This document shows, piece by piece, positions 5,038 through 36,331 of a DNA stretch of 64,000 nucleotides. This stretch comes from Candidatus Colwellbacteria bacterium. Lineage in GTDB: Bacteria; Patescibacteriota; Minisyncoccia; UBA6257; Colwellbacteraceae. A program made the translations under genes and the position numbers. The DNA lies in assembly GCA_016176525.1 (NCBI GenBank), contig JACOWZ010000003.1:385000-448999 (forward strand). The letters are read 5' to 3'. The notes under the pieces were generated by a model. The model saw nothing but the letters and a program-made list of their open reading frames with translations. It was not told where the DNA came from and ran no database searches. The stretch's first letter is position 1. Every line of letters starts with the position of its first letter.

Positions 5038-5664
5038 TTAGAATAATGAAATTTGATTTTTAGCTTCTGTAGTTTGTTTTGCTTCGGGCGCGGTTTTTGT
5101 AAGCAATGATTCAAAGTTTTTTATAAGTTCCGGCAGTTTTTTAAAGTCTGTTTCTAAATCTTTTAAAACTCCAGTGGAGCGCAGTGCCGCTGCGGGGTGG
5201 TATAGCGGGAATATCAATTTATTGCTCAAGCGAAAAACCCTGCCGTGGTCTTTAGAGATTTTTGCATAAGGCAGAAAGTAGTTCATAGAAAATCTGCCCA
5301 ATGGCGCTATTATTGGCGCATTTAGAATTTCCAGTTCGCGCTTTAAGTATGGAGCGTAGACGGCAATCTCCTCCGGGAGTGGGTCGCGATTCTCTGGCGG
5401 GCGGTGTTTTACAATGTTTGTTATATAGACCGTTGCGCGGGGTATGCCGATATTTACTAGTATTTTGTCTAAAAGTTTGCCGGCACGGCCCACAAATGGT
5501 GTTTTAAGCTCGTTTTCAAAACGTCCCGGCGCTTCGCCGATGAATACAACTTTTGAGTTTGTGTCTCCAACGCCGAAAACAAGATTTATTCCCTGTGCAC
5601 GGAGCGGCAGGGAATTATCAGTATCCATTTCTTCTTTTAGCTTAAGAAGCTCGGCAGATTTCAC
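5038..5664 (-). CDS. Uracil-DNA glycosylase, family 4
   Basis: GEAPGRFENELKTPFVGRAGKLLDKIL motif typical of family 4 UDG. Confidence 0.85.
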   Translation of the reverse strand: MKSAELLKLKEEMDTDNSLPLRAQGINLVFGVGDTNSKVVFIGEAPGRFENELKTPFVGRAGKLLDKILVNIGIPRATVYITNIVKHRPPENRDPLPEEIAVYAPYLKRELEILNAPIIAPLGRFSMNYFLPYAKISKDHGRVFRLSNKLIFPLYHPAAALRSTGVLKDLETDFKKLPELIKNFESLLTKTAPEAKQTTEAKNQISLF

Positions 5665-6227
5665 AAAATTGTTACAGAAGTTATGCTTACTGGTTCTTTA
5701 GGCTTTGAAATTTCTGTTGGGTTAAGAGGGTTCGGCTGGGTTTCTGCTCCGGCAATTTTGTCCACGGTTTCTAGCCCCTCTATAACATGCCCGAATATTA
5801 CATAGTTTTTAGGCAGGGGTTGGTCGGCATGCATTATAAAAAATTGGCTGCCGTTTGTATTTGGTCCGCGGTTTGCCATTGCAACTGTGCCGCGGAGGTA
5901 TTCGCCCTTAAACGGCTCGTCGGCAAAAACGTAGCCCGGCCCACCTGTGCCGTCGCCATTAGGGTCGCCGCCCTGTATCATAAATCCCGATATTACCCTG
6001 TGAAATATTGTGCCGTTGTAAAAACCCTCCCCGGCGAGTTTGATAAAATTTTCTGCCGTTTTTGGAGTTTTATCAGCGTACAATTCTATTTGTATTGTCC
6101 CTGCAGTTGTTTCTAATTGAACTACTGGGTTTGTGATTCTTGTTGTTTGCATATATAAAAGCACCGCAAGCACCGCGCCAACAAACGATAGGGCAAATGC
6201 AGCAGCGATTACTTTTTTTGTGGACAT
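5661..6227 (-). CDS. Cyclophilin-type peptidyl-prolyl cis-trans isomerase with N-terminal membrane anchor
   Basis: FHRVISGFMIQGGDP signature; N-terminal hydrophobic segment; 4-nt overlap with the UDG gene. Confidence 0.9.
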   Translation of the reverse strand: MSTKKVIAAAFALSFVGAVLAVLLYMQTTRITNPVVQLETTAGTIQIELYADKTPKTAENFIKLAGEGFYNGTIFHRVISGFMIQGGDPNGDGTGGPGYVFADEPFKGEYLRGTVAMANRGPNTNGSQFFIMHADQPLPKNYVIFGHVIEGLETVDKIAGAETQPNPLNPTEISKPKEPVSITSVTIL

Positions 6228-6258: not shown

Positions 6259-7233
6259 ATGTTAATAGATGAGATAAAAATAAAAATTTCTGGTGGGGCA
6301 GGTGGCAGGGGTGCCGTGGCTTTCCAAAGAAATCTTAAGAGTTTGGGGCCGACTGGCGGGCATGGAGGGCGCGGAGGGAGAGTTTACTTTGAAGGGGTAT
6401 CGGACTTAAGCGCACTCAACCAATTTAGGTTTAAAAAAGACATTAAGGCCGAAGATGGCAAAGATGGCAGGAGCCAGTTTCGAGATGGGTCTGACGGCAG
6501 AGATTTAACCCTAAAAATTCCGGTAGGCACGATTATACACAACGTTACCAAGGGCGCTTCCTTTGAGATGTTAAAAATCGGCCAAAGGTTGCTTGCGGCC
6601 AAAGGCGGCCGGGGAGGCAGAGGTAATTTCCACTTTAGATCTTCGCGGAACACTAGCCCAAAAGAATTTGAAGAAGGCAGGGTTGGAGAAGAATTTGAAT
6701 TAAGGCTTGAATTAAAATTTATCGCAGATGTTGGCTTAGTCGGCTTCCCCAATGTTGGCAAATCAAGCTTGCTAAACGAGCTTACTAGCGCTAGAAGCAA
6801 GGTTGCAAATTATGCTTTTACAACTCTTGAGCCTAATCTAGGCGTTTATTATGAACTTATTCTTGCAGACTTGCCGGGACTTATAGAAGGCGCCTCGCGC
6901 GGCAAAGGTTTGGGCGTAAAATTCTTAAAACATATTGAGCGAACCAAGGTTATTTTTCATCTAGTTTCGGCAGACTCCGCCGACCCGGTTAAAGATTATA
7001 AAACAGTCCGCAAAGAACTGGGGCAATATAGCAAGGAACTGCTAAAAAAACGGGAGTTTTTGATGTTAGCGAAAAGCGACCTGATTGATGCAAAAAGCCA
7101 AAAGACCTTGCTTGCTAAGTTAAAAAAGCTTAATAAGTCGGCTATACATATATCTGTATACGATTGGGATAGTTTGGAAGAAGTTAAGCGTATTCTAAAC
7201 GAACTAGTTAAAGAGAAACATAATTCAGAATAA
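6259..7233 (+). CDS. obg: GTPase Obg/CgtA
   Basis: Gly-rich Obg fold N-terminus (GGAGGRGAVAFQ, GGRGGRG), G1 motif GLVGFPNVGKSSLL. Confidence 0.9.
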   Translation: MLIDEIKIKISGGAGGRGAVAFQRNLKSLGPTGGHGGRGGRVYFEGVSDLSALNQFRFKKDIKAEDGKDGRSQFRDGSDGRDLTLKIPVGTIIHNVTKGASFEMLKIGQRLLAAKGGRGGRGNFHFRSSRNTSPKEFEEGRVGEEFELRLELKFIADVGLVGFPNVGKSSLLNELTSARSKVANYAFTTLEPNLGVYYELILADLPGLIEGASRGKGLGVKFLKHIERTKVIFHLVSADSADPVKDYKTVRKELGQYSKELLKKREFLMLAKSDLIDAKSQKTLLAKLKKLNKSAIHISVYDWDSLEEVKRILNELVKEKHNSE

Positions 7234-7281
7234 AAATCTCGCCTAGTGTTTTGGCGAGGTAGGGTTCTGTGTTTATTGTTG

Positions 7282-7542
7282 TCACGCTTCACCCATTAGC
7301 TTTTTTCTTTCCTTCAGCCATTCAATGTGGAGTTTTTTCTTTTCTTCCTCTTTGTTGATGGCTGTTCCTGTTTCTTCCGCTAGCCCTAAGTTTTTAATGA
7401 ACTTTGCGCACTCCGGGCAATCTCCACTGGAAGTCAGCGCAACTTCCTTGTGTCTTGGGCAGGTTGATATTTCTACCATTTTTTCTCGCGCCCGCGCTTT
7501 TTGTTCTAAGCTCTTTCTAGCACTTTGTAGTGTTAAAGTCAA
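7282..7542 (-). CDS. Small hypothetical protein with CPRH...CPEC zinc-ribbon-like motif
   Basis: 86 aa ORF; Lys/Glu-rich tail; no family recognised. Confidence 0.35.
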   Translation of the reverse strand: MTLTLQSARKSLEQKARAREKMVEISTCPRHKEVALTSSGDCPECAKFIKNLGLAEETGTAINKEEEKKKLHIEWLKERKKLMGEA

Positions 7543-7682
7543 GTTGTGTAAATAAATGTAAAAAGTTTTCCACAGTTTGTGTTTTGTTTACTTGAGCAAA
7601 TAAGATAAAATTATTTTGTAAAGTATTTTTCTCCTTAAAAAATAAAGGTCGAGAGATTTCTAGTGTAAAAAAATAAATTAAA

Positions 7683-7799
7683 ATGGCTAAAAAAAGAAGA
7701 GTAATGAAAAGAAAGACTGCGAAAAAGAGAGCGACCAAGAGAAAAACTACAAAGAGAAGAAAATCTAAGAAAAGAACGACGCGCAGGAGAAGAAGGTAA
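7683..7799 (+). CDS. 38-aa Lys/Arg-rich peptide (MAKKRRVMKRKTAKKRATKRKTTKRRKSKKRTTRRRRR)
   Basis: Not in the ORF track because it is under 60 aa. ATG...TAA, immediately followed by a strong rho-independent terminator. Does not match the L34/L36 consensus. Confidence 0.4.
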   Translation: MAKKRRVMKRKTAKKRATKRKTTKRRKSKKRTTRRRRR

Positions 7800-7815
7800 G
7801 ATAGAGTTGTAAAAA

Positions 7816-7844
7816 CAGCCCCGCAAATGCGGGGCTGTTGTTTT
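7816..7844. terminator. Rho-independent terminator (CAGCCCCGC-AAAT-GCGGGGCTG + TTGTTTT)
   Basis: 9-bp GC stem and T-run read directly. Sits between convergent genes. Confidence 0.65.
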
Positions 7845-7882
7845 AGCACAAAAAAAATAGGCCAGGCGTGAAGCCTGAGCCT

Positions 7883-8194
7883 TTATTCTAGATTAAGTTC
7901 GCCGCGCAGCCAGTTGCGCAGATCGCCGTAGGTTTTGACACTTCTAGGAAACACTACCCGCAAAGCGCAGCGCGAACATGTGACGGCGTTGTGCGTTTCA
8001 GAAATTATATGTACATCCATCTGACCGCCGCAGACGATGTGGATGCCAACGTTGATGAGCGTGAGCTCCTCGTCGTCGGAATGCCCGTTGCTTTGCTTTT
8101 TCAGCATTTCGCCGAACCGTGTTAGTACTATTGGTTTTATTTTAATCACCCTTGTAGGGATTGCTAACACATACTCTAGTGCACTAGACCTCAA
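7883..8194 (-). CDS. Hypothetical protein
   Basis: 103 aa ORF, no recognisable motif. Confidence 0.35.
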   Translation of the reverse strand: MRSSALEYVLAIPTRVIKIKPIVLTRFGEMLKKQSNGHSDDEELTLINVGIHIVCGGQMDVHIISETHNAVTCSRCALRVVFPRSVKTYGDLRNWLRGELNLE

Positions 8195-8223
8195 TCGTCA
8201 AACCATGTAAAATGTTTGCGTAT

Positions 8224-8298
8224 TCCGGCGTAGCTCAGCGGTAGAGCGGCTCCCTGTTAAGGAGATGGTCGCAGGTTCGATCCCTGCCGCCGGAGCCA
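8224..8298 (+). tRNA. tRNA-Asn (GTT)
   Basis: Cloverleaf: acceptor TCCGGCG/CGCCGGA, anticodon loop CTGTTAA, T-arm GGTTCGATCC, encoded CCA. Confidence 0.85.
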
Positions 8299-8329
8299 AA
8301 TTCTTGATAGTCTGTGATATACTTTTTGC

Positions 8330-8749
8330 ATGAAAAGTAGTTTAGGGGCTGTGCCAATTACACTCATTTTAGTGGTTGTAATTGTGGTTGTGACGATTGG
8401 TGGAGTTGGTTTATATTTATATGTTCAAAATAAATTGAACTCGGTTGTAGAAGAATGTTCCGAAGATTCAATTTTGAGACTATACGAAGAAAAAAATTAT
8501 GAGGGTAGGTGTATCGCTCTTAAGGGGTCGGTTGATAATCTGGCTGACTATAATTTCGATAACATTTCGTCTTCTTTAAAAATAAAAGATGGCTATTCTG
8601 CTACATTCTTTGATGAAGCTGATTACAAAGGTAATTTTAGAATAGTTTGGACTAGCACCCCTTATTCAACGAGTGGTTTTGATAATTTAGTTTCTTCAAT
8701 AAGAGTTAAAGAAGGCGGAACTACAATAGAAATTAAGATGGAGGAGTAG
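8330..8749 (+). CDS. Membrane-anchored hypothetical protein with beta/gamma-crystallin-like Greek-key motifs
   Basis: N-terminal TM; YEEKNYEGRCIAL / ATFFDEADYKGNF motifs. Confidence 0.45.
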   Translation: MKSSLGAVPITLILVVVIVVVTIGGVGLYLYVQNKLNSVVEECSEDSILRLYEEKNYEGRCIALKGSVDNLADYNFDNISSSLKIKDGYSATFFDEADYKGNFRIVWTSTPYSTSGFDNLVSSIRVKEGGTTIEIKMEE

Positions 8750-8809
8750 CAAAATAAAATCCCTTCGGTTTAGCGAAGGGTGGGTAGAGATGATCGGTTT
8801 CTTGTTCGG

Positions 8810-8872
8810 CTACTTGGGGTTGCGGGGTGGGTAGTTGTGTGGCTTCGTTTGTCCGCCGTGGTTTTTATCCAT
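8810..8872 (-). CDS. 20-codon small ORF (MDKNHGGQTKPHNYPPRNPK) with perfect SD, promoter and terminator
   Basis: On the minus strand: TTGACA, 17 bp, TGnTATCTT; then TAAGGAGGTGA, 4 nt, ATG; stop; hairpin CCCTTCG/CGAAGGG; U-run. Confidence 0.35.
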   Translation of the reverse strand: MDKNHGGQTKPHNYPPRNPK

Positions 8873-8944
8873 TTGTTCACCTCCTTATGGTTCTGCCGAG
8901 AAGATATCATATTCAGAATATGGTGTCAAAGATAGATCTGAAAA

Positions 8945-9628
8945 TTGTTGGCGGAAGGGGATATTGATATACTAATATTAATGAGACAAAGTTGGATAAT
9001 TCTTATTCCACTCGCATTTGTAACGGGTTTTATGGCGTGCTATTTATGGAGTGGGTTTACTCCCGAATCGCTTGAGACGAACTTGGAAGCCACTATCGGA
9101 TTTATCGGTTGTTCGAACACCGCACAATCAGTTATGGGGTATAGTGCAGTAGGTGGGGATGAGTTTTGGGGAATATCCGACGATCGCAAGCACGACTTTG
9201 ACGGCGGTGCGGTTGCAGATTGGGTGGATATCGGCAATAAATTTTGGCACACATTCGATAATTATTATGCTGCTAATCCGAACACTGATACTATCTGGTG
9301 GCAGATGTGTGTGCGGAGCGATGAAGATCCGACGCTAGAAGATGCGCTTGAAATTGTTTCCGGCATTAAAGGCCGTATACCAGATGTAACAATATATGTA
9401 TCGTCATTGCCGTCGTATCAAGAGGGCATCTGCAGAATAACCGGCACAAGTGGTTTGGCGCGTGGGAAAGAATTAGCGAGCGAACTGGTTTTAAAGAGTG
9501 ATGTGAGGCGCGGCCCTGAATTGCGTTCGCACGAGCCCAGTGAGATACTAGATGATGGCTGTCATATGAATGATGAGGGTTTGCGTGCGGTTGGCGAACA
9601 GCTTAAACAATTTTTCGATTCAGTATGA
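8945..9628 (+). CDS. Hypothetical membrane protein
   Basis: TM segment near the N-terminus. 4-nt overlap with the downstream amidohydrolase gene suggests an operon. Confidence 0.4.
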   Translation: MLAEGDIDILILMRQSWIILIPLAFVTGFMACYLWSGFTPESLETNLEATIGFIGCSNTAQSVMGYSAVGGDEFWGISDDRKHDFDGGAVADWVDIGNKFWHTFDNYYAANPNTDTIWWQMCVRSDEDPTLEDALEIVSGIKGRIPDVTIYVSSLPSYQEGICRITGTSGLARGKELASELVLKSDVRRGPELRSHEPSEILDDGCHMNDEGLRAVGEQLKQFFDSV

Positions 9629-10761
9629 AAAGGATAGTTATAGTAGCAATTATTTTAGTGGTGGCTTTCGGCATATATAAATTTTATTCTGGAAGAGATT
9701 TAGGTGATGATGGGAGGCTTACACGAGCGATAGGCGAATATAATTGCCCAACGGTTTCCAATCTGCCCGATTTCGGCAAACTTTATGATGGTCCGCTTAT
9801 AGATACTCATATGCATATACCGCATCCGCCCGAAGGGCCGGAGTTTCTTGATTCGTTGCCATATTCCAGCCCGCACCCGCAACTAGGGCGGAGTATCACT
9901 GTGTCTGATTACATATGTAATTTCAAAACCACAGGAATTACCAAAGCTTTTATATTTTTCCCAGTTTTCCGTGGACTTGAAGATCTGCATCTTGCGGTAG
10001 CGGATGCGAGTGTTAAGAGATATCCAGAGTTTTTAGTGCCGTTTATTATGCCTCCAGAGAATGACAATGATCCGAGTGGATTTCCGACTGTAAGTGTTGA
10101 TGTTCTTGGAGAGATGCTCCAAGTGTATTCGGGGCTTTTTAGAGGCTATGGTGAAATAGGGCTCTATGCTCGCGGAGACAATAGAGGACCGACCGGAGCT
10201 CCCGAACTTCCGCCTGATTCAGAGAGGCTTCGCGAAATATACCCCATGATCCGAGAAAATAATCTTCTAGTTTACTTCCACTTAGGTCGCGGTCAGCAAG
10301 AATCTTATGAGCGTGTTTTGTCGGCAAACCCAGACATTAATTTTATATTTCATGGTGATCAGTTGATTCCATATGATCGCGGCGTGCAGAACCTTAATAT
10401 CATTGATGGAATACTTAGCCGTCATAAGAATGTCTATTACGGGATTGATGAGTTATATGGAGATGTTTGGCTTCTACATCCAGATAAAAGCAAAGATCAA
10501 TTCTTCAAACATTTTGAGAACTACGAAGAACTCTTGGAATATGATATCGCAACATGGAAAGGGTTTATAGAACGGCATCCCGACCAAGTGCTTTGGGGGA
10601 CCGACCGCGGGGTTGGCAATATCTGGAGCATGGATCGCGATGTAGGATTAACGCTTACACGTTATGCACGGGCATTTATTGCATTACTCGAACCATCTGT
10701 ACAAGATAGATTTGCTCATTTGAATGCCGAGGCGCTGTTGCTTAAATCATCGAATAAGTGA
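9625..10761 (+). CDS. Metal-dependent amidohydrolase-family (TIM-barrel) protein
   Basis: N-terminal TM; DTHMHIPHP metal-binding His motif. Confidence 0.55.
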   Translation: MKRIVIVAIILVVAFGIYKFYSGRDLGDDGRLTRAIGEYNCPTVSNLPDFGKLYDGPLIDTHMHIPHPPEGPEFLDSLPYSSPHPQLGRSITVSDYICNFKTTGITKAFIFFPVFRGLEDLHLAVADASVKRYPEFLVPFIMPPENDNDPSGFPTVSVDVLGEMLQVYSGLFRGYGEIGLYARGDNRGPTGAPELPPDSERLREIYPMIRENNLLVYFHLGRGQQESYERVLSANPDINFIFHGDQLIPYDRGVQNLNIIDGILSRHKNVYYGIDELYGDVWLLHPDKSKDQFFKHFENYEELLEYDIATWKGFIERHPDQVLWGTDRGVGNIWSMDRDVGLTLTRYARAFIALLEPSVQDRFAHLNAEALLLKSSNK

Positions 10762-27233: not shown

Positions 27234-28292
27234 ATGGAACTAATATTCTTTGTTGTACTCACAATTGTTTTAATTGCCGGTTTCGGCCTGATTTTTTGGA
27301 CTTTACGCGGCGGTAAAGGCGAGGCTTCTGCGGGAAACTCGCTTAACCTTATTCAAAACCAGATAAACGAGCTTAATCGCACTTTAGACTCTAAACTTGG
27401 AGAATCGGGTAAGGCAATGCGCGAGCAGTTTTCTGAAAGCGCAAAGATTATTCGCGATGTAACCGAGAAACTAACCAGGCTTGATGAAACCAACAAGCAG
27501 GTTGTTAGTTTCGCGGACCAATTAAGGAGTTTGCAAGACATATTAAAAAATCCAAAACAGCGCGGAGTATTGGGTGAGTATTATCTTGAAACGCTTCTGA
27601 AAAATGTCTTGCCGCCTGATATATACAAAATGCAATATGCTTTTAAAAATGGTGATATTGTTGACGCCGTTGTTTTTGTAGGCAGGAAATCAGATGAGAA
27701 AATTATTCCGATTGATTCCAAATTTTCTTTAGAAAATTATAATCGGTTGGTTGAGGCAGCCGATAAGTCCGAAAAAGATCGCCTTGAGAAACTTTTTGTA
27801 AATGATCTCAAAAACAGAATTGTTGAGACATCAAAATATATCCGACCGGAGGAAGGGACTACTGACTTTGCTTTTATGTTTATTCCACATGAGGCAATTT
27901 ATTACGACCTATTAATTAACAAAGTTGGCGCAGTTTTGGAGGATACGGAAAATTTAATCCAGCGGGCCGCCGGTAAATACAAGGTTTTGATAGTTTCTCC
28001 AACTTCCTTTTTGGCATACCTGCAAACTGTTTTACAAGGCTTGCGTGCACTGAAAATAGAAGAATCTGCAAAAGAGATTAGGAAGCGGGTTGAGGAATTG
28101 GGCAAGCATATGTCGAGTTACGACACATATATGCAGAAGCTTGGTGCCCACCTTGGAACATCGGTAAATATGTATTCCAACGCGTACAAAGAGTTTAAAA
28201 AAATTGATAAAGACGTTTATCGTATAACCGGAGACAAAATGAATATTGAGCCTCTTACTGTGTCTGGCCCGGATTCGGCAGAAGATGAATAA
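27234..28292 (+). CDS. rmuC: DNA recombination protein RmuC
   Basis: N-terminal TM, long coiled coil, C-terminal RmuC nuclease-like domain (FAFMFIPHEAIYYDLL). Confidence 0.85.
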   Translation: MELIFFVVLTIVLIAGFGLIFWTLRGGKGEASAGNSLNLIQNQINELNRTLDSKLGESGKAMREQFSESAKIIRDVTEKLTRLDETNKQVVSFADQLRSLQDILKNPKQRGVLGEYYLETLLKNVLPPDIYKMQYAFKNGDIVDAVVFVGRKSDEKIIPIDSKFSLENYNRLVEAADKSEKDRLEKLFVNDLKNRIVETSKYIRPEEGTTDFAFMFIPHEAIYYDLLINKVGAVLEDTENLIQRAAGKYKVLIVSPTSFLAYLQTVLQGLRALKIEESAKEIRKRVEELGKHMSSYDTYMQKLGAHLGTSVNMYSNAYKEFKKIDKDVYRITGDKMNIEPLTVSGPDSAEDE

Positions 28293-28983
28293 AGTTGGTA
28301 TACAGAAAAAGTGGAGTAAATTTAAACACCGCGTAGGGTTGTTCAATCACGTGCCTTTTGTTGATTTTGCTTTTGCGGCGGGGAGTATGGCGATGGGCTC
28401 GGCGCGCGAGGATTCGGATTTTGACGTAATAGTTGGTGCACGGCACGGCAGAATTTTTACAGTGCGCTTTTTTTCGCATTTATTTTTCGCCTTGCGCAAA
28501 TGGAGAGCAACCCATAATTCAGATTCTCACTTAGGTGTTATGATTAATCATAACACCAGATCTAAAACTGCAGATAAAATATGTTTAAATCATTTTGTAA
28601 CGCCAAAAAGCTATAAATTCTCACCGCCATATAACGAATATTGGAATAAACTGTATTCAAACCTTGTGCCCTTACTCGGAAACGAGCCGGAGATAGAAAA
28701 GTTTATAGATATGAACGATTGGGTGCGGCCGGAGAGAAAATATATGCGCAGCCCTTTCCATGAGAATTTTAAGCCATCGCGCATACGAAAGTTTTTAGAG
28801 CGCGCACTCTCCGGGCCGTTTGGAGACTATATTGAAATAAAACTAAAAGCTTTCCAGATAAAAAGGATAAAGAAAAGCGCGAGTGATCCATCACACTATA
28901 AACCGCGCATAATTTATAGCGACGACGAGCTGGAGTTCCATCCGGATACCAAGAGAATTGAAGAAATACTTACTAAAAAGTAG
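28285..28983 (+). CDS. Nucleotidyltransferase-domain protein (Pol beta superfamily); overlaps the rmuC stop by 8 nt
   Basis: GSMAMGSAREDSDFDV (GS...DxD) NTase motif; contains the in-frame GVMINHNT palindrome insert. Confidence 0.6.
   Translation: MNKVGIQKKWSKFKHRVGLFNHVPFVDFAFAAGSMAMGSAREDSDFDVIVGARHGRIFTVRFFSHLFFALRKWRATHNSDSHLGVMINHNTRSKTADKICLNHFVTPKSYKFSPPYNEYWNKLYSNLVPLLGNEPEIEKFIDMNDWVRPERKYMRSPFHENFKPSRIRKFLERALSGPFGDYIEIKLKAFQIKRIKKSASDPSHYKPRIIYSDDELEFHPDTKRIEEILTKK
28534..28557. repeat. 24-bp palindrome copy C (GGTGTTATGATTAATCATAACACC), in-frame inside the NTase gene
   Basis: Read directly. Confidence 0.9.
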
Positions 28984-29031
28984 GAATTCTAAATATGTTA
29001 CACTACTTATTAGTACCTTAGAGGTGTTCAT

Positions 29032-29637
29032 TTGAAAAACAAAGGAAGGATTATCGGATCGTCGCCGGCTGCCGACTTTAAAAATAGCACTGCGTGGGCG
29101 AATATAACTTGGCACATGCTTGATGACAAACCCTTTGGCAAACCATTTGTCGCGTCGTTCGGCTGGCGTAATGCGATGGCTTACATCTACAGTAAGACGG
29201 CATGCGACGCTCTTGTGTCGCAGTGGTGGAAGAAGAAGCGAGACCCTACAAGCCATGAAAGAAGAAATATCATTCGCCGGGAACGTCGGGACGGTTGGCG
29301 TACGGTGATGGTAAAGCTTGTTCCACTCCAGAAAGGCGAAGGCAGGCGTTCAGAAACCGACTTTTTGGGGGAAACTGGAATCGCTTGGGTGAACATTAAC
29401 ACACCCAGTCCAATCTGGCCGAACGAGAAACCGGGTGTCTGTGACGGATTCATAACAGGTGGTCCGGCAGCATTTGGCACTCGCAACGGCGCGATTGATT
29501 CCGCTATACACTGGCGCTGGTACAAGAAACGCAAGCCCACTGCCGCCGATAGGAGAAAAATTCTAGCTGGACTCCGCCGCGAAGGCTACCGCACTATTAT
29601 GGTAAAACTTGTGCTGGTAAAGCCACTTGAGCCTTAG
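29032..29637 (+). CDS. Hypothetical Trp/Arg-rich protein with an internal duplication; higher GC than its surroundings
   Basis: Two homologous halves ending ...WWKKKRDPTSHERRNIIRRERRDGWRTVMVKLV and ...WYKKRKPTAADRRKILAGLRREGYRTIMVKLV; about 50% GC. Confidence 0.5.
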   Translation: MKNKGRIIGSSPAADFKNSTAWANITWHMLDDKPFGKPFVASFGWRNAMAYIYSKTACDALVSQWWKKKRDPTSHERRNIIRRERRDGWRTVMVKLVPLQKGEGRRSETDFLGETGIAWVNINTPSPIWPNEKPGVCDGFITGGPAAFGTRNGAIDSAIHWRWYKKRKPTAADRRKILAGLRREGYRTIMVKLVLVKPLEP

Positions 29638-29660
29638 GAAAATTCCTAAGGCTTTTTATT
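29631..29660 (+). terminator. Rho-independent terminator (GCCTTAGG-loop-CCTAAGGC + TTTTTATT)
   Basis: Read directly, overlapping the stop of the upstream ORF. Confidence 0.6.
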
Positions 29661-29731
29661 AAAATGGTTTGACAATTAAGTCTTAGAGTTATATTCTCTC
29701 GACCAGAACCCTAAAAATAGGAGGAATTGAA

Positions 29732-30115
29732 TTGGTTCAAAAAGTAAAACTCAGAGTTCCTAGGGCTGCAGAATATTCTGCTATTATGGGGACTCTAAAA
29801 GCGCTAAGCAACGAAACCAGATGCATGTTGCTGGCACTACTTCTTAAGGCCGGCAAAGACGGCCTACGTACGAATGAGCTTGCGAGTAAGGCTGGGATAT
29901 CGCAAAGTCTTACTACTAAACACTTGATGCCACTTACGCAGACACTCTTAGTTGTTAACTATGTTAAGAAGATTAAGGGTGAGCGTCCCATTGCGAGCAT
30001 TTACTATGCATCTACAGAGGGTGAAAAGTGGTTCCGCAAGCTTCGATTCTTGCAAGATGGCGGCGTTTTACTCCCTCTTCTTCCTGAAATCCAAAAGATA
30101 GCCTCACGAACGTGA
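29732..30115 (+). CDS. Winged-helix transcriptional regulator (ArsR-like), TTG start
   Basis: AGGAGG SD 7 nt upstream of TTG; NETRCMLLALLLKAG...LRTNELASKAGISQSLTTKHL HTH. Confidence 0.5.
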   Translation: MVQKVKLRVPRAAEYSAIMGTLKALSNETRCMLLALLLKAGKDGLRTNELASKAGISQSLTTKHLMPLTQTLLVVNYVKKIKGERPIASIYYASTEGEKWFRKLRFLQDGGVLLPLLPEIQKIASRT

Positions 30116-30126
30116 GGTTTTTTTAT
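30102..30126 (+). terminator. Rho-independent terminator (CCTCAC-GAAC-GTGAGG + T-run)
   Basis: Read directly. Confidence 0.55.
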
Positions 30127-30173
30127 TCTTTTTTCACTAGCCACTAATCACTAGTCGCTATATACTTATTTCT

Positions 30174-32321
30174 ATGTTACTAAAGCGCTTGGAATTACAG
30201 GGGTTTAAGTCTTTTGCCGAGAAGACCGTTTTGGATTTAAACACACCCGTTACAGCAGTTGTTGGTCCGAATGGCAGCGGCAAATCTAATGTGACGGATG
30301 CCATCCGCTGGCTTTTAGGCGAGCGCGAAGCGCGCCATTTGCGGGGCGCAAAGGTAGAAGACTTAATCTTTGCAGGCACCGAAAAAAAGGCCCGCATGGG
30401 CCAAGCTCAGGCGACGCTAATCTTGGATAATTCGTCTGGTTATTTCCCCGTTGAATATGCAGAAGTGTCTGTTTCGCGCAAAATAAACCGTGACGGGGAT
30501 TCGCAGTTTTTTATAAACAAATCCGAAGTGCGGCTTAAAGATATTTTAGACTTTTTTGCAAAAACTCGCGTGGGTGCTAGGGGGCTTACAATAATTAGCC
30601 AGGGCGATAGCGATATGTTTTTGCGCGCGACCCCGGAAGAAAGGCGGGAGATGATGGAAGAAGTTTTGGGCCTAAAAGAGTACCAGTTGCGCAAAACAGA
30701 GAGTGAAAAGAGGCTTAAGACTACGCTTGAGAACTTAGACAAAGCCTCTGCTCTTATAGAAGAGATAAAGCCGCATATGCGGTTTTTGAAAAAGCAGGTG
30801 TCGCGCTACGAGAGCCGTGAGGTGCTATCGCACGAGCTAATGGATTTGGAGAATAATTTTTATGGCAAGAGGTTAAAAGTTTTTAGAACAGAGACTAAAA
30901 ATCTTAACACGCAAAGAGAATTGTTGGAGGCGGATATAAAACGCGAGGAAGCGAACTATAAAGAGCTTGAAGAGAATTTAAACAAAATTAAGGAGAGCGA
31001 ACCGAAAGAGGAAAAGGCAGTGGAAACCGATGATAAAGAGCGTGAAAAACTTTTGGCGCGCAGATCTGAGCTATCGCGCAGCTTCGGCAAAATTGAGGCG
31101 CAGTTAGAATTTGAAGCGGGGCAAAGAGCTGTTAAGAACGCCGGCGTAGACTTCGCCGCGCTTTTAAAGGAAGTAAGGGAAGTTGCGTACGCGCTGTTGC
31201 AAGAAACTGAAATCCAAAATATTTATACAAAGCTAGGTACTATTGTCAAAAAAATAGACGAAATTTTTACAGATGGCGATAAAGCGCAGAGCAAGGCTCT
31301 TATTGAGGCGCAAAATAAATTAGCAGGGGAGCTTGCCCGACTAGACAAAGAGATTAAAGATATAACGAAGCGTGAAGAAGAAGAGCGCTCACGCATGCTA
31401 AGTTTTAGTAAAGACTTTACCGATGCTTACGAAAAAGCGGAAATGCAGAGAAAAAAACTGGAGAGTGTCAAACAAGAAAAACAGAAAACTCAGTTTGCGA
31501 TAGAAAAAGTAGAGCTTCAGACGTCTAACTTAAAAGAAGAGTTAAGCCAGATTGGGCGCACACTTGAATCTATTGAAAATTTTGCAGTTACCGAGATTAG
31601 TGCTTTAGATGAAAATACTGCAATAAAACGCATGTATCGTCTGCGTGGAGAGCTGGCGGGTATTGGCGAGTTGGATGAAAATCTACTTAAAGAAGCGCGC
31701 GAGACTGAAGAAAGGCACACATTCTTAACTTCGCAGGTAGAAGATTTGCAAAAAGCCACAAACGACCTAAAAACTCTTATAAAAGAACTTGATGAGAAAA
31801 TTAAGCACGATTTTACGGATGCGCTAAAGTCAATAAACAACGAGCTAACAAGTTTTATGACTCTTATGTTCGGCGGAGGCAGAGCGAAACTTGTGGCGAA
31901 GCAACTAAATAACGAAATAATAGAGCAACAAAATAACAAGACAGATGTAGAAGATAGCCGGATTGGTATAGATGTTGAGTTGTCTTTGCCGCGCAAGCGC
32001 CTAAAGGGGCTCGAAGTGCTCTCTGGGGGCGAGAGGGCGCTTGTTTCTGTGTCAATACTTTTTGCCCTTATTTCTGTTAGCCCGCCGCCGTTTTTGGTGC
32101 TTGATGAGGTTGACGCACCCCTTGATGAGGCAAATGCCAAGAGGTTTAGCAATATTATTCGCGATATGTCTAAAAAAACGCAGTTTATTATTGTTACGCA
32201 CAACCGCGCAACTATGGAAGCTGCAGACTTTCTGTATGGAGTTACTATGGGGGCAGATGGCGCTTCGCGTGTTTTGTCACTAAAGTTGGAGGCGGCAAAA
32301 GAAGCTGTTGCGGCGGCATAG
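30174..32321 (+). CDS. smc: SMC-family chromosome segregation ATPase, unusually short (715 aa)
   Basis: N-terminal Walker A VVGPNGSGKSN; C-terminal LSGGERALVSVSILFAL signature with FLVLDEVDAPLD Walker B; coiled-coil middle; conserved synteny upstream of rpsP. Confidence 0.8.
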   Translation: MLLKRLELQGFKSFAEKTVLDLNTPVTAVVGPNGSGKSNVTDAIRWLLGEREARHLRGAKVEDLIFAGTEKKARMGQAQATLILDNSSGYFPVEYAEVSVSRKINRDGDSQFFINKSEVRLKDILDFFAKTRVGARGLTIISQGDSDMFLRATPEERREMMEEVLGLKEYQLRKTESEKRLKTTLENLDKASALIEEIKPHMRFLKKQVSRYESREVLSHELMDLENNFYGKRLKVFRTETKNLNTQRELLEADIKREEANYKELEENLNKIKESEPKEEKAVETDDKEREKLLARRSELSRSFGKIEAQLEFEAGQRAVKNAGVDFAALLKEVREVAYALLQETEIQNIYTKLGTIVKKIDEIFTDGDKAQSKALIEAQNKLAGELARLDKEIKDITKREEEERSRMLSFSKDFTDAYEKAEMQRKKLESVKQEKQKTQFAIEKVELQTSNLKEELSQIGRTLESIENFAVTEISALDENTAIKRMYRLRGELAGIGELDENLLKEARETEERHTFLTSQVEDLQKATNDLKTLIKELDEKIKHDFTDALKSINNELTSFMTLMFGGGRAKLVAKQLNNEIIEQQNNKTDVEDSRIGIDVELSLPRKRLKGLEVLSGGERALVSVSILFALISVSPPPFLVLDEVDAPLDEANAKRFSNIIRDMSKKTQFIIVTHNRATMEAADFLYGVTMGADGASRVLSLKLEAAKEAVAAA

Positions 32322-35740: not shown

Positions 35741-36331
35741 ATGACCAAACGTACTAAAAAGATTATTGATTTTTTGTACGAGATCGAGAAATTCAAACTC
35801 GTTGAAAGGCGGACATATTTGTCGAATCAAAAGAGGCATGAATCTGATGCCGAGCATGAGTGGCATATGGCGATGATGATTTGGCTTTTCTCAACTGTTA
35901 TAAAGAAAAAGTTTGATGTGTTTCATGCGATGAAACTCGCACTTGTGCATGACTTGCCGGAGATTTATGCAGGGGATACGTATAGGTTCGATCCTAAAGG
36001 CAATAATACAAAGAGAGCGCGTGAGGTGAAGGCGGCTCGCAAACTCTTTGCTCAACTACCTAAAGATTTAGATAAAGAATTCTGGGCGCTCTGGGATGAG
36101 TACGAAGAAAATAAAACTTATGAGGCTAGAATTGTGCATTTCGTTGATGGAACAAATCCAGGTATTCAGAATATGGTTTCAAAAGCCAAAGCATGGAAAG
36201 AGAATAAATTAGATAGGAAAAGCGTATTCAAGAGGAGAGATGAATTGCTTCAATATATCGACAGCAAAGAACTTAAGGATTGGCTCAATTCGTTAGTTGA
36301 TGAAGCTGTAAAAAAGAAGTATCTTATTTAA
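35741..36331 (+). CDS. HD-domain phosphohydrolase (YfbR-like 5'-deoxynucleotidase)
   Basis: ESDAEHEWHMAMM...LALVHDLPEIYAGD HD motifs. Confidence 0.8.
   Translation: MTKRTKKIIDFLYEIEKFKLVERRTYLSNQKRHESDAEHEWHMAMMIWLFSTVIKKKFDVFHAMKLALVHDLPEIYAGDTYRFDPKGNNTKRAREVKAARKLFAQLPKDLDKEFWALWDEYEENKTYEARIVHFVDGTNPGIQNMVSKAKAWKENKLDRKSVFKRRDELLQYIDSKELKDWLNSLVDEAVKKKYLI

Follow-up and report, generated by a model that had tools for sequence, protein, structure and literature searches.

The DNA analysed here is a stretch of 64 kb, hereafter called the window, which covers about 10% of the genome and to which all window counts refer. Judged by the proteins encoded around the locus, whose tags belong to the HYS87_ series, it stems from a 644,793-bp contig of a metagenome-assembled genome (MAG) of Candidatus Colwellbacteria, an uncultivated member of the Parcubacteria in the candidate phyla radiation (CPR). 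The subject of the analysis is a miniature gene, the mini-gene, on the minus strand at 8750-8945, which combines a promoter, a Shine-Dalgarno sequence (SD), a 20-codon open reading frame (ORF) and an intrinsic terminator. It occupies a 231-bp spacer between two plus-strand genes of this compact genome; all other genes from tRNA-Asn (8224) to 13106 lie on the plus strand. The tags of the two flanking genes are consecutive, so that nothing is annotated in between, and the frames of the spacer have never been called as genes in a collection of 15 billion proteins. The features of the locus are the following; those of the minus strand are given in the order of transcription, with a palindrome at the end.

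8330-8749, plus strand: gene for a beta/gamma-crystallin-like protein, HYS87_02235
8981-9628, plus strand: gene for a 215-amino-acid hypothetical protein, HYS87_02240
8929-8924, minus strand: -35 hexamer TTGACA, a 6/6 match (TTTGACA counting the preceding T)
Between -35 and -10, minus strand: spacer of 17 nt
8909-8901, minus strand: extended -10 TGaTATCTT (TG at 8909-8908, TATCTT at 8906-8901), in the genome's own TGATATAmT style
8889..8900, minus strand: G+C-rich discriminator and putative transcript start, CTCGGC-AGAACC, common to the promoter of a helix-turn-helix (HTH) gene (29698-29710)
8887-8877, minus strand: SD TAAGGAGGTGA, 11 nt, fully complementary to the canonical 16S rRNA 3' tail
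8872-8870, minus strand: ATG start, preceded by ACAA, the 4 nt between SD and ATG
8810..8872, minus strand: ATG-initiated 20-codon ORF, MDKNHGGQTKPHNYPPRNPK, with its stop TAG at 8812-8810
8781..8872, minus strand: C/A-rich RNA body (A 39%, C 37%, G 15%, U 9%) with the tracts CCCACCCC, CCCC and CCCACCC
8786..8795, minus strand: anti-SD-like segment GAUCAUCUCU, of which 8 nt, UCAUCUCU (8793-8786), can pair with GGAGGUGA of the SD
8780-8761, minus strand: intrinsic terminator hairpin CCCTTCG-CTAAAC-CGAAGGG, with a 7-bp stem (5 G-C pairs) and a 6-nt loop
8760-8751, minus strand: U-tract ATTTTATTTT 3' of the hairpin, within the terminator tail AUUUUAUUUU
8903..8927, both strands: imperfect palindrome GACACCATATTC T GAATATGATATC of 25 bp, with 10/12 arm complementarity and the perfect core CATATTC-T-GAATATG

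The elements and coordinates that an earlier, sequence-only reading had given for this unit, from TTGACA and the 17-bp spacer through the extended -10, the SD, the ATG at 8872 and the 20-codon ORF to the hairpin and the U-run, were all recovered. The promoter agrees with the consensus at 10 of 12 positions, has the TG of an extended -10 in addition, and is the top promoter match within 7500-10500. Transcription would start at A8894, 7 nt past the -10 box, because the leaderless genes of this genome keep 6-8 nt between the -10 box and the ATG. An RNA that starts there would measure ~142 nt, instead of the ~130 nt proposed earlier, and would have a leader of 22 nt. The GGAGG core lies 7 nt ahead of the ATG, and the terminator, which is specific for the minus strand by virtue of its U-tract, follows 30 nt past the stop codon. 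A promoter, an SD 5-10 nt from the start codon, an in-frame stop and a terminator, the features of an SD-led small ORF, are all present in the unit.

Exceptional signals in a leaderless, SD-poor window

The exact 11-mer TAAGGAGGTGA occurs once in the window and is expected there 0.01 times (it appeared in one of 100 dinucleotide shuffles). No other SD match exceeds 8 nt; the runner-up matches measure 8 nt and are located inside genes. The SD, described earlier as “perfect”, is a full 11-nt complement of the canonical 16S tail and the sole long SD of the window. All signals of the mini-gene stand at canonical spacings, and their assembly by chance is excluded. An independent Logan assembly of the groundwater DNA sample (SRR12113383) contains the identical 196 bases, which shows that the unit is not an assembly artefact. 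BLAST comparisons of the mini-gene with plasmids and phages gave no similarity, and in the absence of such relatives an origin from a vector or mobile element was rejected. The plus-strand CACCTCCTTA had been taken for the mere complement of the SD and not for a fragment of rRNA, and Rfam indeed gives no match to it.

These signals are best judged by comparison with the other genes of the window. Of the 62 ORFs, 23 have a TATAAT box (at least 5/6), often in the form TGnTATAAT, that precedes the start codon by 3-13 nt and mostly by 6-8 nt. These boxes come with no SD and without a recognisable -35 box, the best -35 match in this group being no higher than 4/6. SD motifs ahead of start codons are nearly absent, with a few genes carrying SDs of 6 nt. 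A TATAAT box directly before a start points to a leaderless mRNA, and gene expression in the window looks predominantly leaderless. Examples of such starts are 5661-6227 on the minus strand and 6259, 8330, 8981, 14811, 20568, 56895 and 62563 on the plus strand. No description of leaderless translation or of small RNAs (sRNAs) in Parcubacteria was found in searches of the literature.

In such a leaderless, SD-poor genome, the signals of the mini-gene do not belong to the background. The mini-gene stands out as an exception by its perfect -35 box, its G+C-rich discriminator, its 22-nt leader and its full-length SD. At the same time its promoter looks native, since the -10 region TGATATCTT follows the TGATATAmT style of the genome. 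The sequence-only reading had called near-consensus signals rare in a weakly signalled genome. Their rarity holds, but the genome is not weakly signalled as such: strong -10 boxes of the TATAAT type precede many starts, and it is the SD and the -35 box that are missing. In its context, the mini-gene is thus more unusual than had been seen at first, and it is not yet a discovery.

The 5' module shared with a helix-turn-helix gene

A scan for strong -35/-10 pairs found one other TTGACA-17-TATyyT promoter in the 64 kb, at 29668.

29668..29731, plus strand: paralogous promoter and 5' untranslated region, TTTGACA-17-TATTCT-CTCGACCAGAACC-CUAAAAAU-AGGAGG-7-TTG, which drives the HTH gene

The likeness between the two extends past the hexamers. 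On the side of the mini-gene the alignment reads TTTGACA-N17-TATCTT-CTCGG-CAGAACC-AUAAGGAGG, on the other side TTTGACA-N17-TATTCT-CTCGACCAGAACC-CUAAAAAUAGGAGG, and the segment shared after the -10 box, CTCGrC(C)AGAACC, is conserved within an edit distance of 2. Twelve-mers within this distance of CTCGGCAGAACC occur at 8 non-self positions in 128,000, and one of these lies directly after the -10 box of the 29668 promoter. For about a dozen candidate promoters, this puts the probability of a coincidence at P ~1e-3.

The gene concerned (29732-30115) is monocistronic and encodes a winged-HTH protein of 127 amino acids with weak matches to Pfam HTH_20 and to the Csa3 type of PADLOC. It has an AGGAGG SD 7 nt ahead of its TTG start as well as its own terminator, so that the whole unit spans 29668-30135. 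No homologue of the protein was found besides its own copy. To judge from the alignment, the 5' module of the mini-gene is a paralogue of the 5' region of the HTH gene. This relationship to the leader of a translated protein gene is the best argument that the SD and AUG of the mini-gene would work as a translation start. Furthermore, it suggests that the two genes are probably co-regulated or of shared origin. Scans of viral contigs with the shared promoter/leader motif gave 0 matches, and a looser pattern gave 50, all of them in coding regions of high-GC phages and, by our estimate, about the number expected by chance.

Some further observations concern the HTH gene and its surroundings. The deposited version of the protein, HYS87_02370 (96 amino acids), starts 31 codons too late, which cuts off the first helix. 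The 5' coding region of the gene contains a perfect 14-bp palindrome, GCAGAATATTCTGC, at 29768-29781. The neighbourhood (28246-32321, plus strand) comprises a Pol-beta-type nucleotidyltransferase (28246-28983), an SD-led gene for 201 amino acids (29032-29637), the HTH gene and a 715-amino-acid SMC_N/AAA ATPase with matches to PADLOC mad3 (2e-63) and LmuB (4e-29). It may represent a toxin-antitoxin or defence cluster. Several of the few SD-led genes of the window are clustered there.

The palindrome of the mini-gene promoter (8903..8927) fills the gap between the -35 and -10 boxes and is a possible operator. On its own it is not significant, since for any given spacer length we estimate that the window should contain about two palindromes as good as this one. 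Both this palindrome and GCAGAATATTCTGC of the HTH gene were considered as operators and set aside; we estimate that palindromes of such sizes occur some 2-4 times per window, and no claim is made for them. On the minus strand at 36163-36183, antisense within an HD-domain gene (35741-36331), the sequence TTTGAAACCATATTCTGAATA agrees at 20 of 21 positions with a segment of the mini-gene promoter that comprises the -35 and spacer part and the left half of the palindrome (BLAST E = 0.001). This could be a second operator-like site or a product of chance.

Translation of the mini-gene and competing explanations

The reading that we tentatively prefer, with a probability of about 45%, is that the mini-gene is a genuine, independently transcribed gene for a translated micro-protein, the RNA of which is engaged by ribosomes. 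A sigma-70-type promoter, made up of the -35 box, the extended -10 and the G+C-rich discriminator, would give rise to the leadered ~142-nt RNA from a start near A8894. The 22-nt leader would offer the full-length SD 4 nt ahead of the AUG, followed by an unstructured stretch rich in C and A. It could be imagined that 30S subunits bind the 5' end right after its synthesis and that the 20 codons are translated into a hydrophilic peptide rich in Pro, Asn, Lys and His. Once the 3' part has been made, GAUCAUCUCU near the terminator would pair with the SD and close the RNA, and as a consequence of this closure translation would be mainly co-transcriptional or limited. The terminator would then close the unit. 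With the AUG at 7 nt from the GGAGG core of an 11-nt SD, and with unstructured RNA behind it, the start region looks like an excellent initiation site.

The C+A content of the body is reached by only 0.05% of 92-nt windows on either strand. Folding of the putative transcript (8894-8750) yields a modest z-score of -1.7. In the predicted fold, an 80-nt C/A-rich body is unpaired, the terminator hairpin is formed, and GGAGGUGA of the SD pairs with UCAUCUCU with probabilities of 0.9-0.99. The segment GAUCAUCUCU is similar to the 16S tail GAUCACCUCCU except for changes of C to U. An uninterrupted run of eight pairs between the SD and the anti-SD-like segment is found in 0.8% of shuffles; the energy of the duplex is unexceptional (P = 0.18), because C-rich RNA readily pairs with GGAGG. 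Masking of the SD by GAUCAUCUCU, which would limit ribosome loading to nascent RNA, appears plausible in this model.

A number of observations weigh against translation into a functional peptide. When the RNA body is shuffled with its composition preserved, 66% of the shuffles have an ORF of at least 20 codons after the ATG (P = 0.66), since stop codons are rare in so C/A-rich a sequence, and the length of the ORF carries no weight. A second minus-strand frame is also open, for 46 amino acids. The codon usage is non-coding-like, with a log-likelihood ratio of coding versus non-coding of -0.74: real 19-codon windows have a mean of +6.3 and 2.7% of them score this low, while -0.74 or more is reached by one third of the open non-coding windows, in a test that is weak at 19 codons. 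Characterised bacterial micro-proteins mostly have a hydrophobic core; the peptide is hydrophilic and has no such core, with no hydrophobic residue other than Met1 and Tyr14. Any frame of a C/A-rich RNA would give such a make-up of P, N, K, H, T and Q, and no sign of selection on the peptide was detected. It has no match in Pfam, NCBIfam or PDB, and the sequence-only reading, too, had recognised no family for this Pro-rich basic peptide. In the predicted fold of the complete RNA, hardly any of the SD stays unpaired. The complementarity of the SD was scored against the canonical 16S tail, which may not be that of the host. Finally, a back-translated pattern of SD plus MDKNHG had 0 matches in metagenomes of the Joint Genome Institute (JGI), and the single JGI match of the pattern PHNYPPRNP, antisense in a gene for 190 amino acids, is due to chance.

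The searches for relatives also covered the surroundings. The adjacent 215-amino-acid protein has 9 homologues among 5.8 billion proteins, and the best of these other than itself show 65-69% identity and differ in their upstream neighbours. For Obg, the closest homologues reach 70% identity, and the regions downstream of them are not syntenic or are unrelated. A search for similar modules of an SD and a micro-ORF elsewhere, as had been proposed in the sequence-only reading, returned no extended-SD micro-ORF in the rest of the window or in 109 kb of fetched loci, a 3.7-kb self copy included. Judged by these comparisons, the mini-gene is a lineage-specific orphan that belongs to no described family, and we regard it as a genuine orphan small gene that is probably translated.

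ALTERNATIVES examined comprise a leader peptide, an RNA family, an sRNA, a type I toxin-antitoxin pair, an insulator, a remnant and a tRNA island. The choice had initially been seen as one between a micro-protein, a leader peptide and an sRNA with an incidental ORF; of these, the first and the last survive. A leader peptide or attenuator was rejected, as nothing but the antisense strands of the gene 8330-8749 and of tRNA-Asn lies downstream on the minus strand, and the unit is closed by its terminator. A close and only somewhat less probable rival of the micro-protein is a regulatory sRNA, perhaps with a dual function, in which the ORF is incidental. The selected features would then be the unstructured C-rich body with its C tracts, the SD-like box, or both, and the RNA would act by pairing to G-rich sequences or by occupying the anti-SD of the 30S subunit, like the C-rich seeds of RsaE/RoxS-type sRNAs. 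The extreme composition of the body and its predicted lack of pairing are in line with such a role, and so is the distance of ~142 nt from promoter to terminator, which is typical of sRNAs. The chance-expected ORF length, the non-coding-like codon usage and a peptide that merely mirrors C/A-rich RNA likewise fit an incidental ORF. However, not even at E = 10 does Rfam give a match in 8600-9100, and at the gathering score Rfam 15, which includes RsaE/RoxS and 6S, matches nothing in the window except 5 tRNAs. A duplex scan against the 62 start regions of the window brought out no standout target and did no better with this RNA than with shuffled RNA (P = 0.2), and G-rich SD targets are few in an SD-poor genome. 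Furthermore, an optimally placed ATG after a perfect SD, together with leader homology to a protein gene, would be unexpected for a purely non-coding RNA.

That same homology gives some room to a third, improbable explanation, namely a non-functional or decaying remnant: the promoter, leader and start of an HTH-like gene would have been duplicated, the coding sequence lost, and an accidental frame left before a pre-existing terminator. The paralogy of the 5' module with 29668-29731, the ORF without a coding signature and the lack of homologues in the searches made are all compatible with it. Decay is difficult to reconcile with an SD that is longer and more perfect than that of the presumed parent (11 nt versus 6 nt) and with an ATG in place of a TTG start, or with a terminator oriented for the strand of the mini-gene and only 30 nt past its stop. 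In addition, tblastn of the window ORFs of at least 80 amino acids and of the HTH protein against the unit returned only noise, with no protein trace in any frame, and CPR genomes are compact, with stretches of 230 bp of dead sequence seldom retained. Still less probable is a cis-antisense element, which would take one of two forms. The minus-strand RNA might be the antitoxin of a hydrophobic plus-strand peptide, encoded by a 51-amino-acid frame at 8780-8935, as in a type I toxin-antitoxin pair; or the convergent unit might act as an insulator that keeps transcription of the crystallin-like gene (8330-8749) from running on into the gene that follows. The frame, VGRDDRFLVRLLGVAGWVVVWLRLSAVVFIHLFTSLWF..., is indeed strongly hydrophobic and overlapped by the unit (8894-8751), the strong promoter is what would be expected of an antitoxin, the crystallin-like gene lacks its own U-tract terminator, and a good fold (z = -2.15) is predicted for the plus-strand RNA, in which GGAGGAG at 8740-8746 pairs with CACCUCC. 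(The former is formed by the last codons of 8330-8749, the latter is the complement of the mini-gene SD.) Yet all three plus-strand frames are open (51, 46 and 46 amino acids; 8780-8975), because that strand is poor in A (9%), and the 51-amino-acid frame lacks an ATG as well as a -10 box at the distance of leaderless genes and an SD at a usable spacing. It matches no toxin family, has one marginal repeat-like match among 1.8 billion representatives, was never called as a gene and is present as a single copy in the 64 kb. With no family, credible homologue or start signals, it was rejected as a toxin. Moreover, an antitoxin needs neither a perfect SD nor an ATG, and an insulator leaves the perfect SD and the AUG unexplained.

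Parallels, significance and surroundings

The closest parallels of the mini-gene are leadered small-ORF genes and dual-function sRNAs such as SR1/SR1P of Bacillus, SgrS/SgrT and RNAIII/hld. Like these, it would be transcribed by itself into a short RNA, from a promoter of its own to an intrinsic terminator, with an SD ahead of an ORF that counts no more than a few dozen codons, and activity may reside in both the RNA and the peptide. It differs from them in having no sequence or Rfam relationship, in its mostly leaderless CPR host and in its hydrophilic peptide without a family. In certain aspects the RNA is also reminiscent of the C-rich sRNAs RsaE/RoxS of Firmicutes, which have unpaired C-rich tracts in a short, terminator-ended RNA as well. 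Unlike them, it has no RF01820 match, its C tracts are not in predicted hairpin loops, and it has an SD and AUG of its own. The predicted locking of the SD by a sequence near the 3' end resembles hok and aapA1, the type I toxin mRNAs in which a long-distance interaction between 5' and 3' ends masks the SD, and access of ribosomes would then likewise be limited to nascent or processed RNA. Here, in contrast, the peptide lacks hydrophobic character, no antisense RNA with signals of its own is recognisable as a partner and no family is matched.

The most speculative explanation that was considered, and an outside chance, is that the mini-gene is a dedicated probe or sink for the SD pathway. The 11-nt SD, the unstructured micro-ORF and the anti-SD mimic would capture free 30S subunits and their exposed anti-SD, with the effect that these are titrated or that their abundance is turned into a signal in the form of a peptide or RNA, and the shared promoter and leader would couple this to the SD-dependent HTH regulator at 29732. 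Such an element might be the CPR counterpart of the SD circuit on rpsU in Flavobacteriia, with a micro-ORF in place of the ribosomal protein. In Flavobacterium johnsoniae, ribosomes ignore SDs, and a single strong SD, on rpsU (bS21), forms an autoregulatory circuit; bS21 occludes the anti-SD, and translation from this SD reports the state of the anti-SD of the ribosome (PMC9976891, PMC13000453). The mini-gene shares with rpsU an exceptional strong SD in an SD-poor genome, here within a 64-kb window. However, its 20-residue product matches no ribosomal-protein family and is not bS21, the SD-poor state goes with leaderless mRNAs and not with A-rich leaders of the Bacteroidia type, anti-SD sequestration is not known from CPR bacteria, and a few other genes of the window carry 6-nt SDs, in a survey of ~10% of the genome.

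As regards the wider meaning of the mini-gene, it should be kept in mind that small genes are systematically missed in CPR genomes. A Colwellbacteria genome that is built on leaderless genes retains at least one textbook cassette of -35, -10, SD and terminator, with a paralogous copy on a regulator gene. If it is expressed, the mini-gene would offer a way to find out whether CPR bacteria use and regulate SD-dependent initiation; to our knowledge there is no translation biochemistry for these bacteria. It would also be a ready-made native expression cassette and a candidate for the first sRNA or micro-protein of the lineage. Should it be no more than a lineage-specific orphan, only the annotation would be affected.

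Two observations on the wider locus may be added. Upstream of the plus-strand run, almost 1 kb separates obg from tRNA-Asn (7233-8224), and this gap holds only two minus-strand ORFs (110 and 103 amino acids), without a Pfam match, as well as a hairpin at 7859-7878 that resembles a two-way terminator. An island integrated at tRNA-Asn was considered and rejected, as no att-like repeat of the 3' end of the tRNA is present in the window. Close to the mini-gene on the other side, the plus strand carries an Amidohydro_2 gene (9625-10761), the nearest genomic relatives of which are 43-58% identical. These relatives are dispersed over MAGs labelled Nanoarchaeota, Woesearchaeota, Methanosarcinales and Gammaproteobacteria, DPANN archaea thus included, in addition to other CPR bacteria. 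This distribution suggests horizontal exchange of the gene, with the reservation that some of the MAG labels may be binning errors.

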